A program made the position numbers and the translations under genes. From a virus (Duplodnaviria > Heunggongvirae > Uroviricota > Caudoviricetes), in IMG/VR virus record IMGVR_UViG_2778261298_000002, positions 1 through 41,462 of that record: DNA of 41,462 nucleotides; one strand, 5' to 3'. Every line of letters begins with the position of its first letter. The stretch's first letter is position 1. Below the pieces are notes generated by a model. That model did no database searches. It saw only the letters and a program-made list of their open reading frames with translations, and was not told where the DNA came from. Shown one piece after another: positions 31,258 through 35,383 of the stretch.

Positions 31258-31394
31258 AGCTTTCTCCTATCTGTAAGTAGTAAAGTTGTTGATAACTTCG
31301 ATTATACAACTACAACAACTTTCATCACAACTTTTAGATGTTGGAAAGCTAAAACATAAAGTTGTAACCTCAATAAAAACGAGGGGGATATGTT
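31258..31394. promoter_or_regulatory. Immunity operator/promoter region (OR-like) between cro-like and cI-like genes
   Basis: Repeated half-sites AAGTTGT/ACAACTT; minus-strand promoter TTGTGA-18-TATAAT (rc of 31325-31330 and 31301-31306) toward cro; plus-strand TTGATA at 31289-31294. Confidence 0.6.
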
Positions 31395-32081
31395 GTGAAA
31401 ACATTGGCAGAAAGACTAAAAAGCGAAAGAGAAAAAGCAGGAATGAGTCAGGCGCAACTAGCTGAAAAAATTGGGCTTTCACAACAATCCGTAGCGAAAA
31501 TCGAGAATGGAGAAACTCAACAGCCTCGGAAAATTAAAGAGATTGCTAAAGTGTTAGGGGTTTCTCAAAAGTGGTTGCAATTGGGCATTGAGGATAACGC
31601 GTCTTTCCCAGACCTTGTTGTAAAGGAGGCTGAAAGTACAGCATTAGATCCTGACATTTTTGCAAACATTCCAGTCCTAGATGTCGAGTTATCAGCGGGT
31701 AATGGATGTTTGGCTGAAATAGTTGAATCAACTGTAGACTGGTTCCCGCTAAGAAGGATTGATTTAAGAAAAGCTGGTGTATGTGTCTCCAATGCAAAGA
31801 TCGTAAAAATTTGGGGCAATAGTTTACTACCTGTACTTAACAATGGAGATTTTGTTGCTGTTGATGTTTCCCAAACGGTTCCTATTCGTGATGGGGATCT
31901 TTATGCCATACGTGATGGCGTATTACTTAGAGTTAAAATATTGATCAATTTACCTGACGGTGGTCTGATTCTAAGAAGTTTCAATAAAGATGAGTATCCA
32001 GATGAAATACTCACCTTCGAAGATAGGCGTTCAAGAATTCACGTTATAGGTAGAGTATTCTGGTCATCGCGCACTTGGTAA
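31395..32081 (+). CDS. CI-like repressor (HTH XRE domain plus S24 LexA-like peptidase domain), GTG start
   Basis: 228 aa; N-terminal HTH (MSQAQLAEKIGLSQQSVAKIENGE); C-terminal S24-like domain. Confidence 0.8.
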   Translation: MKTLAERLKSEREKAGMSQAQLAEKIGLSQQSVAKIENGETQQPRKIKEIAKVLGVSQKWLQLGIEDNASFPDLVVKEAESTALDPDIFANIPVLDVELSAGNGCLAEIVESTVDWFPLRRIDLRKAGVCVSNAKIVKIWGNSLLPVLNNGDFVAVDVSQTVPIRDGDLYAIRDGVLLRVKILINLPDGGLILRSFNKDEYPDEILTFEDRRSRIHVIGRVFWSSRTW

Positions 32082-32267: not shown

Positions 32268-32320
32268 TAAAGTTGTTGACAACAACCAAAACAACAACTA
32301 GATTACAACTTAAAGATGTT
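32268..32320. promoter_or_regulatory. Second operator/promoter cluster (OL/PL-like) driving the early-left operon
   Basis: aaagttgttgacaacaaccaaaacaacaactagattacaacttaaagatgttg repeats the OR half-sites; plus-strand TTGACA (32276-32281)-17 bp-TAGATT (32299-32304). Confidence 0.55.
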
Positions 32321-32396
32321 GCAGTAACGAACAGGCAGGACGCCCACGAAGTAGCCGCCGGTGGCGTATGAATGACCGGATGATTCGTTAAATACT

Positions 32397-32618
32397 ATGT
32401 GTAAGAGAGCGCAAATGAACCGTTATTTCACATGCTCGTTTTGTGGCGCAAACGAGCTGCAGGCAAAAAAAATCATCGCCAAAGGCGGAAAAGATGAAGT
32501 TGCTATCTGCTCTGAGTGCGTAGTCTTGTGTGTCGGGGCATTAATCAATATCAGCACAACTATTCAGTTCACACCAAATGAGAATGCGCCTTTAGATGCG
32601 CGGAAATCTGGAGGTTAA
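32397..32618 (+). CDS. Small protein with ClpX-type C4 zinc finger (ClpX N-domain mimic)
   Basis: 73 aa; YFTCSFCGANELQAKKIIAKGGKDEVAICSECVVLC parallels ClpX [33 protein letters not shown]. Confidence 0.65.
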   Translation: MCKRAQMNRYFTCSFCGANELQAKKIIAKGGKDEVAICSECVVLCVGALINISTTIQFTPNENAPLDARKSGG

Positions 32619-32668
32619 AGAACAAAATGAAAGTCCAGATTTTAAACAATAACTGTGAAGTCGTTTGG
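32606..32668. repeat. 63-bp direct repeat, copy 1 (RBS plus first 14 codons MKVQILNN...; truncated ORF here)
   Basis: Near-identical to 33234-33296; here the ORF stops after 15 codons (MKVQILNNNCEVVWA*). Confidence 0.8.
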
Positions 32669-32677
32669 GCGTAAAAC

Positions 32678-32884
32678 ATGACCGCGCGTAGACCAAGGGA
32701 GGAAAAAGTGGGAATAGTTAGAAATCAAGCAGATATATTGAAAATCAGCTCTGAATTGCTTGGAGTTTTGAAAAGTGAGCTCACCGCACATGGCATCGAG
32801 CCCACTGACGAAAATTTAAGTTGGGTTTTGTCGATTATTCAACAATCACTCAAGCCCAGCCTCAGCAAACTTTTTATCGAGTAG
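32678..32884 (+). CDS. Hypothetical small protein (68 aa; alternative GTG start at 32708)
   Basis: ORF with RBS GGGAGG before the GTG; 3' end overlaps the convergent minus-strand ORF. Confidence 0.4.
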   Translation: MTARRPREEKVGIVRNQADILKISSELLGVLKSELTAHGIEPTDENLSWVLSIIQQSLKPSLSKLFIE

Positions 32885-33071: not shown

Positions 33072-33162
33072 GATACCACCGAGCCTGAAGTGGTGAAAAG
33101 ACAGGCACATAACAGCTAAGTATTTTCAACCAGAGAGAATCCTTAGCGTTGTGGTGAATGCG
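33072..33162. repeat. 91-bp direct repeat, copy 1 (upstream of minus-strand small gene)
   Basis: gataccaccgagcctgaagtggtgaaaagacaggcacataacagctaagtattttcaaccagagagaatccttagcgttgtggtgaatgcg; identical copy at 33727-33817. Confidence 0.85.
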
Positions 33163-33233
33163 CAGGCTGATGCGCGAAAGACATTGCAGCTATTGCGGAA
33201 AAGAGCTGTTCGGCGGGGCCATTAAACGCCCGT

Positions 33234-33296
33234 ATCTGGAGGTTAAAGAACAAAATGAAAGTCCAGATTTTAAACAATAGTGGTGAAGTCGTTTGG
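33234..33296. repeat. 63-bp direct repeat, copy 2 (start of the full-length MKVQILNN ORF)
   Basis: Matches 32606-32668. Confidence 0.8.
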
Positions 33297-33530
33297 TCAT
33301 ACGACATAGCCGCTCCTGTAGATCAGAGCGGCGATAGCTGGACCAATGGGAAACATCAGATTATGGCTGGAGTTGTGTTCTCTTTACGCCGTGCTTTGGA
33401 ACAGGCTGAAGTATTTCCATCAGACCCTGAATGGAAATGGCCTTTTTCTATTTGTCCAAATTCGGAGAGCACATTTCAGAAAATTGGTCAGAAAGTCGCA
33501 CTCGAAGAGCATCAGCCAACTGTTTCCTGA
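33255..33530 (+). CDS. Hypothetical small protein (91 aa)
   Basis: MKVQILNNSGEVVWSYDIAAPV...; RBS GGAGG; 3' end overlaps the convergent ORF. Confidence 0.5.
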   Translation: MKVQILNNSGEVVWSYDIAAPVDQSGDSWTNGKHQIMAGVVFSLRRALEQAEVFPSDPEWKWPFSICPNSESTFQKIGQKVALEEHQPTVS

Positions 33531-33693
33531 TTTTTTCAGGTAACTCGTCGGCATCGCAGAAACAACAACGCTCGATCATGTTGAAAGCCGATTCGTAGAA
33601 CTGTTTCTGCTGAGTGTCGCTGAGACAGGAAAAGAGCGACGTTACGATGATTTTATTAATTGCATTATCAAGTTCTTTTTCATCAAAAGTCAT
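33448..33693 (-). CDS. Hypothetical small protein (81 aa, Cys-containing)
   Basis: MTFDEKELDNAINKII...ERCCFCDADELPEK...; RBS aaggaaaa; 91-bp repeat about 34 bp upstream. Confidence 0.5.
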   Translation of the reverse strand: MTFDEKELDNAINKIIVTSLFSCLSDTQQKQFYESAFNMIERCCFCDADELPEKIRKQLADALRVRLSDQFSEMCSPNLDK

Positions 33694-33726
33694 TTGATTT
33701 TCCTTTTATGTATACGGGCTTAAAAG

Positions 33727-33817
33727 GATACCACCGAGCCTGAAGTGGTGAAAAGACAGGCACATAACAGCTAAGTATTTTCAACCAGAGAGAATCCTTA
33801 GCGTTGTGGTGAATGCG
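33727..33817. repeat. 91-bp direct repeat, copy 2
   Basis: Identical to 33072-33162. Confidence 0.85.
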
Positions 33818-33947
33818 GCTCAGCGCACGCGGGTTAAGGTTGAGGCTGACAGTCGACCTTCTGTGGATACCCACCCGCCTGGTGTGCAACCTTCGCCAGG
33901 CACCGGGAGGCACCCGGCACCACAACTTTATGCTGTGTGTAGTCCTC

Positions 33948-33993
33948 GCGGTACCAGTTTGTACACTTGCTTCCGGCTGGTACCGCTCTTTTT
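33948..33993 (+). terminator. Terminator-like hairpin (10-bp stem gcggtaccag/ctggtaccgc plus T-run) in a GC-rich structured leader
   Basis: Perfect 10-bp inverted repeat with a 19-nt loop, followed by tcttttt. Confidence 0.4.
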
Positions 33994-34130
33994 ACAAAAC
34001 AGAGAAGAGCATCACCGGACGACGGGCTCATAACCCAATCCATCCGGGCGGCTGCCACCGCAGGTGTTCTTCTCTGTTTTGTGGAGAAACCAACCGACCT
34101 TGCAGGGTCGATATGATGAGGAGCAGCAAA

Positions 34131-34493
34131 ATGGCTAGCGAACGCAGTACTGATGTGCAGGCATTTATCGGGGAGCTGGACGGCGGCGTATTTGAAACCA
34201 AAATCGGCGCTGTTCTCAGTGAAGTCGCTTCCGGTGTGATGAACACGAAAACCAAAGGTAAGGTCTCGCTCAACCTGGAAATCGAACCATTTGATGAGAA
34301 CCGTGTGAAAATCAAACACAAACTCTCATATGTTCGCCCGACTAACCGCGGGAAAATTTCCGAAGAAGACACCACCGAAACGCCGATGTATGTCAATCGC
34401 GGTGGTCGCCTGACTATTCTGCAGGAAGACCAGGGACAATTACTGACTCTTGCCGGTGAACCTGACGGAAAACTCCGCGCAGCAGGTCGTTAA
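34131..34493 (+). CDS. Hypothetical protein, YfdP-like (120 aa)
   Basis: Start taken at MASERS with RBS GAGGAG; size and order recall the CPS-53 yfdP-yfdT block; the track's longer ORF from 33813 is rejected. Confidence 0.5.
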   Translation: MASERSTDVQAFIGELDGGVFETKIGAVLSEVASGVMNTKTKGKVSLNLEIEPFDENRVKIKHKLSYVRPTNRGKISEEDTTETPMYVNRGGRLTILQEDQGQLLTLAGEPDGKLRAAGR

Positions 34494-34558
34494 TATCGTT
34501 CGTAATAAACTGATTATTTATCTCATCACTGAATATCTTTATATAGTGAGGACTTATT

Positions 34559-35383
34559 ATGTCTCAGAACTTAGACGCAACCGCAATTAATCAAATCCAT
34601 GCCCTTATTTCTGCTCAGGGTGTTAATGAAATTATCAGTAAGATTGGTGCCGATGCTGTGGCATTGCCTGAGAATTTCCGCATTCATGATCTGGAAAAAT
34701 TTAATTTAAATCGCTTCCGTTTCCGTGGTGCGCTTTCCACTGCCAGTATCGATGACTTTACCCGTTATTCTAAAGATCTTGCAGATGAAGGCACCCGCTG
34801 CTTTATCGATGCCGATAATATGCGTGCCGTCAGTGTGCTTAACCTGGGTACTATTGATGAACCAGGTCACGCAGATAACACCGCCACTCTCAAACTGAAA
34901 AAGACAGCACCGTTCTCTGCCCTGTTGTCTGTTAACGGCGAGCGTAACTCCCAGAAATCACTGGCAGAATGGATTGAAGACTGGGCCGACTACCTTGTGG
35001 GCTTTGATGCTAATGGTGACGCCATTCAGGCAACAAAAGCGGCGGCGGCAATCCGTAAAATCACGATTGAAGCAAACCAGACCGCTGATTTTGAAGATAA
35101 TGACTTCAGCGGCAAACGCTCCCTGATGGAATCTGTCGAAGCGAAGACCAAAGACATTATGCCAGTGGCATTTGAATTTAAATGCGTTCCATTTGAAGGC
35201 CTGAAAGAACGTCCGTTTAAATTACGACTCAGCATTATCACTGGCGATCGTCCTGTACTGGTTCTGCGCATTATTCAGCTGGAAGCGGTGCAGGAAGAAA
35301 TGGCTAACGAATTTCGTGATCTGCTTGTTGAGAAATTCAAAGACAGCAAAGTAGAAACCTTTATTGGTACTTTCACCGCCTGA
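34559..35383 (+). CDS. DUF2303-like protein (YfdQ-like, 274 aa)
   Basis: Size and synteny; RBS GTGAGGA upstream. Confidence 0.5.

Follow-up and report, generated by a model that had tools for sequence, protein, structure and literature searches.

A promoter-less member of the STnc100 RNA family in the leader upstream of yfdP of an SfV-like lambdoid prophage

The DNA considered here, called the window, is the whole 41,462-nucleotide (nt) IMG/VR virus record IMGVR_UViG_2778261298_000002 (Duplodnaviria; Heunggongvirae; Uroviricota; Caudoviricetes), an SfV-like lambdoid prophage. On its plus strand, positions 33730–34130 between the repressor gene cI and the gene yfdP form a GC-rich, strongly structured non-coding leader, and this leader is the subject of the present work. 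Over 33700–34140, identity is 100% with phage vB_EcoM-720R4 and 98% with Shigella phage SfV, and weaker matches are found in ST64B, 118970_sal3 (sal3 below) and phiES15. When 1,081 nt around the element were used as a query, part of them found a match in 2,900 of 5,426 complete E. coli genomes. In SfV, cro on the minus strand is followed on the plus strand by cI, orf33, the element region, orf32 (YfdP), orf31 (YfdQ), orf30, xis and int, and the same type of layout is found in mEp460, ST64B, sal3, phiES15 and the K-12 cryptic prophage e14. In all six the element lies 3' of a cI-type repressor gene, on the same strand and before the early-left genes; from this conserved gene order the region is therefore read as the leader of the early-left operon segment that starts with yfdP.

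An earlier note on this DNA had marked out 33818–34130 as a single structured region, either a regulated leader or a small RNA (sRNA). The GC contrast that it reported is real (0.56–0.575 over 33800–34199 versus 0.38–0.47 in the flanks), and its position as the 5' leader of yfdP, its match to an sRNA family and the covariation of its helices all strengthen the description, while regulation itself stays a proposal. The boundaries had to be redrawn. The element starts 45–90 nt further upstream, since the Rfam match begins at 33773 and conserved 5' parts begin at 33730, and 34130 stands as the last leader base because the ATG of yfdP is at 34131. What had been taken for one structure consists of two separable modules, an STnc100-type core with its terminator and a 3' Y-shaped domain. 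The earlier note had also overlooked the absence of a promoter belonging to the element.

The region belongs, as a divergent copy, to a prophage RNA family that is already catalogued. An Infernal/Rfam-type scan, which had been proposed as a check, places 33773–33995 (plus strand) in STnc100 (RF02076) over its full length with 49.1 bits (E = 9.7e-08), against a gathering score of 47, and this is the sole gathering-level RNA match in the window. The margin is small and the closest relatives fall under the threshold (SfV 39.5, ST64B 35.1, phiES15 40.6 and sal3 37.5 bits), so that these copies represent a divergent branch of the family. Relatives were gathered by two scans, one with an invariant P6/P1 string, which returned more than 120 viral contigs, and one with a subfamily-specific string, which returned 22 loci in species-representative genomes of Escherichia, Shigella, Pantoea, Mixta and Enterobacter; individual loci are given below by L numbers where they have to be told apart. 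A covariance model built from 24 subfamily sequences gives the window 110 bits and finds one full copy only; run with filters off, it shows the PR and late operons of the window to be free of additional copies. The parts of the leader and the gene that follows it are these:

33730–33749 (plus): upstream hairpin ACCAC...GUGGU, read from the sequence; first part of the 5' extension of subfamily B (defined below)
33759–33770 (plus): single-stranded motif GGCACAUAACAG just 5' of P0, GCACAYAACAG in relatives
33770–33802 (plus): P0 hairpin, arms 33770–33782 and 33790–33802, 85% complementary
33803–33926 (plus): STnc100-type core, about 124 nt, 49.1 bits with Rfam and 110 bits with our model
33803–33811 with 33918–33926 (plus): P1, from covariation
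33812–33814 (plus): junction AAU
33815–33830 (plus): P2 with a bulged A, from covariation
33836–33842 with 33887–33893 (plus): predicted pseudoknot of AAGGUUG with CAACCUU in the P5 loop, from per-sequence statistics
33878–33884 with 33894–33900 (plus): P5
33903–33917 (plus): P6, nearly invariant loop AGGCA, from covariation
33927–33947 (plus): unpaired linker UUUAUGCUGUGUGUAGUCCUC, whose core UGCUGUGUG is kept before unrelated terminators
33948–33993 (plus): T1, terminator-like hairpin with stem 33948–33959/33975–33986, loop of 15 nt and tail UCUUUUU at 33987–33993
33994–34082 (plus): Y-shaped domain, a basal stem of about 24 bp and two small hairpins
34081–34091 (plus): box GUGGAGAAACC, Shine-Dalgarno (SD)-like, no start codon at a usable distance
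34093–34112 (plus): hairpin hp3, CGACC/GGUCG, just before the ribosome-binding site (RBS)
34118–34493 (plus): yfdP, with RBS GAGGAG at 34118–34123, ATG at 34131 and stop codon ending at 34493; 60% identity to ST64B Sb37 from residue 1

Compensatory changes in the relatives keep every helix of the element. Among 94 aligned family members, 93.9% of cells pair and changes on both sides are seen in 12 of 19 pairs, values that none of 500 shuffles reach. P2 alternates between C-G, G-C and U-A at three positions, and the plus strand is indicated by the G-U pairs that occur in P1 and T1. P5 and the pseudoknot had to be tested sequence by sequence with shuffled controls, because MAFFT sets them out of register between lineages and so gives low pair counts. 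In that analysis at least seven contiguous pairs at the expected offset are found in 53% of 58 distinct loop/partner combinations, as compared with 4.4% of shuffled loops, and the pairs themselves are diverse (AAGGUUG/CAACCUU, AGACUGACAAA/UUUGUCAGUCU, GAGCUGGC/GCCAGCUU and CAGUUAA/UUAACUG). The core thus contains a predicted pseudoknot that is conserved and covarying, with variable hairpins between its first strand (33836–33842) and P5. It goes beyond what is displayed by the nested Rfam consensus line or by the RNAalifold model of a 2026 preprint (bioRxiv 10.64898/2026.05.13.724894). The 5' parts are conserved as well. In the upstream hairpin the relatives keep the stem CCAC/GUGG and differ in the loop; the motif before P0 is found in the SfV-like, Pantoea, Mixta, phiES15 and lambda copies; and the pairing of P0 is kept despite replaced sequence in ST64B, Pantoea, L138, L144 and lambda. 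The block 33725–33770 is about 95% conserved in Klebsiella phages and Rac-SA53; by identity these 46 nt, which comprise the hairpin and AAAAGACAGGCACAUAACAG, reach about 95% in several Klebsiella phages and 89% in Rac-SA53, with otherwise no match to the query.

The window copy shares with STnc100 the string GGUGAAU, a P2 with a bulged A, the string CACCGGGAGGCACCCGGCACCA, a P1 that closes the core, a terminator after a spacer and residence in a lambdoid prophage. P1, P2, P6 and both strings all lie within 33803–33926, and T1 closes the RNA, though its loop is unusually long. However, P2 in the window is of the type GCGGC.../...GCACGC whereas that of STnc100 is CCCCC.../...GGGG, the window copy carries a 5' hairpin, a motif and P0 in addition, and it lies in the PL (early-left promoter) operon instead of between Q and the lysis genes. 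It also has no adjacent promoter, the best sigma-70 match being 6/12 in a consensus test. PasD1 and PasD2 of enteropathogenic E. coli are reported, prophage-encoded structural homologues of STnc100 that were found associated with Hfq by RIL-seq, validated by northern blot and assigned a seed region (bioRxiv 10.64898/2026.05.13.724894). As far as the published description allows a comparison, PasD differs in its place: over 98% of its hits belong to the late region, with a Q antiterminator gene and lpxR no more than 10 kb away. A role of STnc100 in stx regulation is a proposal only, and STnc100 has been discussed as an sRNA with its own seed.

The long open reading frame (ORF) that crosses the element is an artefact. 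ORFs do exist at 33813–34493 (226 amino acids) and 33806–34033, and a RefSeq ymfH annotation lies over the e14 copy, so that a genuine protein gene here, either the 226-amino-acid ORF or a YmfH-like one, can be argued; this is almost certainly wrong. As had been suspected, the 226-amino-acid ORF is a 5' extension of yfdP in a frame that is not conserved. Its true 3' part is yfdP, which encodes a product of 120 amino acids and is annotated as YfdP in near-identical records, and homology to ST64B Sb37 begins at YfdP residue 1, the ATG at 34131. Relatives differ across the region by insertions and deletions that are not multiples of three, the conserved RNA stretch shares the reading frame of yfdP in ST64B but not in the window, and substitutions keep base pairs, not codons. 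No Pfam or NCBIfam match was found for any ORF over the region, nor for YfdP.

Downstream of the core, the perfect 10-bp inverted repeat followed by a T-run that had been noticed earlier is present (33948–33957/33977–33986) and extends to a 12-bp stem with the tail UCUUUUU, here called T1. Its predicted stability is -20.5 kcal/mol (z = -5.3; 0 of 200 shuffles as stable), with changes on both sides in 4 of 8 pairs, including G-C to A-U and G-U intermediates. The position of T1 holds canonical terminators in phiES15, L017, L061, L093 and L145. The second, long-range inverted repeat also proved real and longer than first described, with arms of 25 nt (33994–34018/34058–34082) that are 84% complementary. 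It forms the Y-shaped domain, which folds at -49.7 kcal/mol (z = -7.6), includes the U-tract region of T1 in its 5' arm and shows compensatory changes in the stem and in both branches; it matches no Rfam family. T1, the Y-domain and hp3 are far more stable than their shuffles, and folding of the whole leader (33773–34140) gives z = -5.9. From the length of its stem, the duplex of the Y-domain could be a substrate of RNase III. The box GUGGAGAAAYC is invariant in nine aligned leaders (SfV-like, ST64B, sal3, e14 and L093), and the GUGGAGAAACC box is also present in Pantoea and Mixta copies that have neither T1 nor the Y-domain. The pairing of hp3 is kept with replaced sequence in ST64B, L093, L008 and Pantoea, and across the 3' module as a whole (T1, Y-domain, box and hp3) compensatory changes separate the SfV-like, ST64B, e14 and L093 versions. 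When the whole leader is folded for minimum free energy, the two halves of the linker, UGCUG and UCCUC (33932–33947), pair with the SD region of yfdP (GAGGAGCAGCA, 34118–34128) and enclose T1, the Y-domain and hp3. This pairing was not adopted, as it is unconserved in ST64B and of doubtful significance.

Comparison of the relatives shows that the STnc100 family occurs in two contexts, as promoter-driven leader units of late operons and as promoter-less copies inside PL leaders. Subfamily A has a P2 of the CCCCC/GGGG type, as in the Rfam consensus. In 41 of 67 copies it carries a promoter scoring at least 8/12 at a fixed distance, often TTGACA-N18-TAAATT ending 3 nt before P1, and a terminator follows about 20–30 or about 160 nt after the core. 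In the loci examined, subfamily A lies between a Q antiterminator gene and holin/lysozyme genes, that is as a late-operon leader, with Q proteins of two different Pfam families (PF06530 and PF03589), and it can form tandem arrays of three to five copies. Such arrays, with a spacing of about 250 nt, are seen in other prophages (L015 2322–3358; L024 366–992; L032 1719–2345; L069 4373–5463), and the L015 array is flanked by a sialate-esterase gene and by an ORF that looks, by eye, like a DNA methylase. Subfamily B, which includes the window, has a P2 of the GCGGC/GC-CGC type and a 5' extension made up of the hairpin, GCACAYAACAG and the covarying P0. Where annotation was read (SfV, mEp460, ST64B, sal3, phiES15 and e14), its place is within the early-left operon, 3' of the repressor gene. 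The linker (UGCUGUGUG) and a terminator follow most Escherichia/Salmonella-type copies of subfamily B and several others.

The promoter question bears directly on whether the element is an autonomous gene for a trans-acting, Hfq-type sRNA, with its own promoter just upstream, T1 as its terminator and the linker UGCUGUGUGUAGUC as a seed for host or phage mRNAs. The Rfam family is typed as an sRNA gene, PasD is Hfq-associated, northern-validated and seed-assigned, a seed is discussed for STnc100 too, subfamily A shows consensus promoters, terminators and tandem arrays, and the conserved linker sits directly before a terminator hairpin. However, no subfamily-B core has an adjacent sigma-70 match better than 6/12, a promoter scan of 33400–34600 calls no plus-strand promoter, and an own promoter for the window element, found neither by that scan nor by our own scoring, was rejected. 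The conserved 5' motif and P0 precede P1 and carry the RNA beyond any candidate start, so that transcription must begin further upstream. For the e14 ymfH unit, Reg-seq detected no constitutive start site on its upstream side (PMC12132413), and many subfamily-B copies lack a terminator and run into a gene. For the linker, a search confined to the window finds no complement beyond chance; a cis target in the window was rejected on this result. Taken as an explanation of the window copy, an autonomous sRNA gene is rather unlikely; the linker may act in trans.

The transcripts that reach the element likely come from PL. Operator-like repeats (TAAAGTTGTTGAYAAC, ATYACAACTTNNAGATGTTG) are found in the cI–cro intergenic region at 31281–31343 and again at 32268–32321, 190 nt downstream of cI; by their sequence they look like an OR/OL (right and left operator) pair, the second of which frames a near-consensus promoter that is taken to be PL. 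The core lies about 1.5 kb downstream of this predicted promoter. Between the two, a further conserved motif, LE1, starts about 15–20 nt after the predicted start of PL transcription.

31395–32081: cI
32276–32303 (plus): predicted PL, TTGACA at 32276–32281, a spacer of 17 nt and TAGATT at 32298–32303; consensus-like, inside a copy of the operator repeat of OR
32327–32388 (plus): LE1, about 62 nt
33072–33162 (plus): perfect 91-nt duplicate of 33727–33817, with upstream hairpin, motif, P0, P1 5' strand and GGUGAAUGCG

LE1 is made up of an invariant 23-mer (GGCAGGACGCCCACGAAGUAGCC), a hairpin that covaries around a conserved loop of 12 nt (GGCAUAUGAAGA), the string GGAUGA and a closing stem that covaries too. 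Compensatory changes are seen in 9 of its 16 predicted pairs, and Rfam has no family for it. It is found in more than 120 viral contigs behind about 50 promoter/operator classes, and 53 of 95 distinct upstream sequences hold a good promoter whose -10 box ends 20–31 nt before it. In 51 of 76 loci it lies 350–1500 nt upstream of a subfamily-B core. Some relatives have a canonical boxA (GCUCUUUAACAA) about 35 nt beyond LE1, which the window does not. By its putL- or nutL-like position, LE1 would be the better candidate for an antitermination signal in the PL operon.

These positions matter for a second possibility, that the core is itself a put-like cis RNA which, while nascent, binds RNA polymerase or a phage or host factor, or blocks Rho, and so confers resistance to T1 and to later terminators. 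The put RNAs of HK022 are about 70 nt long and consist of two stem-loops directly after the promoter (PMC9378689). The window leader resembles putL and putR in being a structured leader RNA of a lambdoid early operon with no identified N gene, upstream of terminators, and the family heads both of the long, terminator-crossing lambdoid operons, subfamily A at a promoter between Q and holin/lysozyme genes and subfamily B in PL leaders whatever genes follow. The nearly invariant junction and loop nucleotides and the pseudoknot suggest a specific tertiary fold or partner, and ST64B has about 815 nt without an annotated gene between cI and yfdP in which two terminator-like hairpins occur. Against this, the core has no similarity of sequence or structure to HK022 putL, and our model finds nothing in the PL/PR region of HK022; a resemblance of GCGGGUUxAGGxUGA to putL is at chance level, and homology to put was rejected. 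The core is about 124 nt long and pseudoknotted, has neither the two-stem-loop form of about 70 nt nor a place directly after the promoter (as putL) or within about 270 nt of it (as putR), and lies 1.5 kb from PL, where LE1 occupies the putL-like position. Subfamily-A RNAs are reported to be discrete sRNAs, most with a terminator 20–30 nt after the core, which argues that the core RNA alone does not suppress the next terminator. Subfamily A also co-occurs with two different Q families, and mEp460-type phages manage without the interior of the core. A put-like role of the core is accordingly judged unlikely.

Other antitermination-linked leaders were compared in the same way. A lambda-type nut site was rejected, as no boxA (CGCUCUUUAACAA-like) within two mismatches is present in the PL region; the P6 loop AGGCA is not GNRNA, inspection by eye showed no boxB-like pentaloop of GNRA type, and none of the ORFs was identified as N-like. 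In lambda, the nutL–N leader has an RNase III site before N; the window leader resembles it in its map place between the repressor gene and the first early-left genes and in its long duplex (33994–34082) before the first RBS. The lambda 6S RNA (the PR'–tR' leader) and StxS of Stx phages are short, promoter-proximal, terminated transcripts that head an antitermination-controlled operon. Subfamily A occupies that position, a likeness of position only, whereas the window element is not promoter-proximal and belongs to the early-left, not the late operon.

The order of a pseudoknotted core followed by a terminator would also suit a riboswitch-like sensor, in which the core would bind a small molecule or a protein as its aptamer and the expression platform would be T1 or, in relatives, the RBS. 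The nearly invariant junction nucleotides and the pseudoknot agree with such a layout, and in several lineages the pseudoknot strand has a second local partner (33853–33860 in the window), which gives a possible alternative fold. However, no conserved, mutually exclusive pairing between core and terminator was seen on comparing lineages, whose terminators are unrelated in sequence. A terminator complementary to P2 was considered as the platform and dropped, since only the common CCCCUCUCCGGAGGGG terminator shows the complementarity and those of other lineages do not. The spacer to the terminator ranges from about 20 to about 160 nt, the downstream genes are mutually unrelated, and tandem arrays are unusual for riboswitches. 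A sensor of this kind is very unlikely.

The neighbourhood of the element is mosaic. The 91-nt duplicate at 33072–33162 repeats the 5' flank together with the initial 45 nt of the element, is broken off and fused to the remnant of a ClpX-zinc-finger gene, and scores only 22 bits with our model (33141–33193). It closes at the junction GAATGCG|CAGGCUGAUGCGCG, which recurs in mEp460, and is therefore a recombination scar. In mEp460, cdtI and many Stx2 phages, T1 and the 3' module are present at 99–100% identity. A mosaic breakpoint falls inside the element at 33947/33948; in mEp460 the interior of the core is replaced by a ClpX-zinc-finger gene remnant. The e14 copy (L129 3010–3404) is decayed, with P6 reading CCGGG-GGCACCCGA, and together with T1 and the Y-domain it underlies the RefSeq ymfH annotation upstream of xisE–intE, which is thus probably not a protein gene. 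In lambda, a subfamily-B shell lies just downstream of tR' (44789–44944; L259 990–1145), with GCACAACAG, a P0 hairpin and P1 GUUGUGCUG-AAU...CAGCACAAC; its 64-nt interior is different, lacks P2 and P6, and gives 19.2 bits (E = 0.0018) with our model. Such breakpoints, namely those at 33947/33948, at GAATGCG in the duplicate, around the mEp460 interior and at the lambda outer shell, could mean that the window copy is mainly a boundary for swaps of lambdoid modules with no current function. The full copy nevertheless keeps all helices and conserved nucleotides, while the copy in the cryptic prophage e14 has decayed in P6, and the family-wide compensatory changes show selection on the RNA; a mere recombination boundary has only a remote chance of being the answer.

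Several other features of the region were recorded. The first gene after PL and LE1 (32397–32618, plus strand) encodes a 73-amino-acid protein with a ClpX C4-type zinc finger (PF06689, E = 1.4e-10), and a gene of this type is also found 3' of LE1 in sal3-type phages. A truncated paralogue of 40 amino acids lies at 33158–33280 (plus strand), after the duplicated element fragment. A second pair of repeats, 32582–32685 versus 33156–33313, has 75–89% identity. Taken together, the repeats show that an accessory module between PL and yfdP has been duplicated and rearranged. Just 5' of the element, two ORFs overlap on opposite strands, 33255–33530 (plus), annotated in SfV as orf33, and 33448–33693 (minus), annotated in vB_EcoM-720R4; neither has a Pfam or NCBIfam match. 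In the rightward operon of SfV, mEp460, ST64B and sal3, adjoining matches to C4 antisense RNA and isrK were found (64–84 bits). Neither family reaches the gathering threshold in the window. The pairs are located as follows:

L001 757–945, L004 321–509, L005 409–597 and L006 107–295 (minus strand): C4/isrK pair

The explanation preferred here, to which an even chance is given, is that of a terminator-capped leader which gates PL transcription into yfdPQR...xis–int and releases a stable STnc100-type RNA. Module 1 (33730–33993) is a promoter-less, operon-internal variant of STnc100/PasD comprising the 5' hairpin, the motif, P0, the pseudoknotted core, the linker and T1, and module 2 (33994–34112) comprises the Y-domain, the GUGGAGAAACC box and the small hairpin before the yfdP RBS. 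Structure, family membership, operon position, lack of an adjacent promoter and conservation of the terminator are established by the analysis; the working scheme that follows is predicted. Upon prophage induction, RNA polymerase starting at PL (about 32310) would pass LE1, then the small accessory genes, and enter module 1. T1 would halt part of the transcripts and so throttle yfdPQR...xis–int, and the T1-ended RNA, with a compact STnc100-type fold and a terminator hairpin as its 3' part, is expected to be long-lived. Polymerases that pass T1 would produce yfdP mRNA with a 5' untranslated region shaped by module 2 and possibly cut by RNase III in the 24-bp stem. Such read-through may be leakage or may reflect antitermination set up at the PL-proximal LE1. 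In e14, the ymfH–xisE–intE unit is, with ymfJ and ymfL, among the SOS-response genes derepressed in hupAB mutants (PMC2634741). This result and the Reg-seq result for the same unit both fit transcription from PL and not from a local promoter.

Several observations weigh against the gating leader. The phage vB_EcoM-720R4 (L128), though near-identical, shows no LE1 in 7 kb upstream, and read-through that depends on LE1 therefore cannot be general. T1 has a loop of 15 nt and only five U, and a simple terminator scan gave no call for it. Because mEp460 has the 3' module without the interior of the core, the two are separable. Pantoea, Mixta, Rac-type, Enterobacter and L138 cores run into the next gene without a terminator, so that the function of the core cannot depend on T1. 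Finally, the e14 array data (PMC2634741) imply substantial read-through into xisE.

For the STnc100 family, these results add a predicted pseudoknot, two genomic contexts and mosaic breakpoints inside the element, and they show that the PL leaders of subfamily B usually also carry LE1. A broader reading is that the core is a portable, cis-acting leader module that heads both terminator-crossing operons and is not primarily a base-pairing sRNA. This is put forward as a long shot; such a module may bind RNA polymerase, Rho/Nus factors or a nuclease and thereby secure long-range transcription or mRNA survival. If true, the core and LE1 would constitute a new operon-level RNA control in phages without an identifiable N gene. 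A cis effect of the core on transcription or RNA stability, if there is one, would bear on the expression of xis, int and the early-left genes in these phages, for which no N gene was identified.

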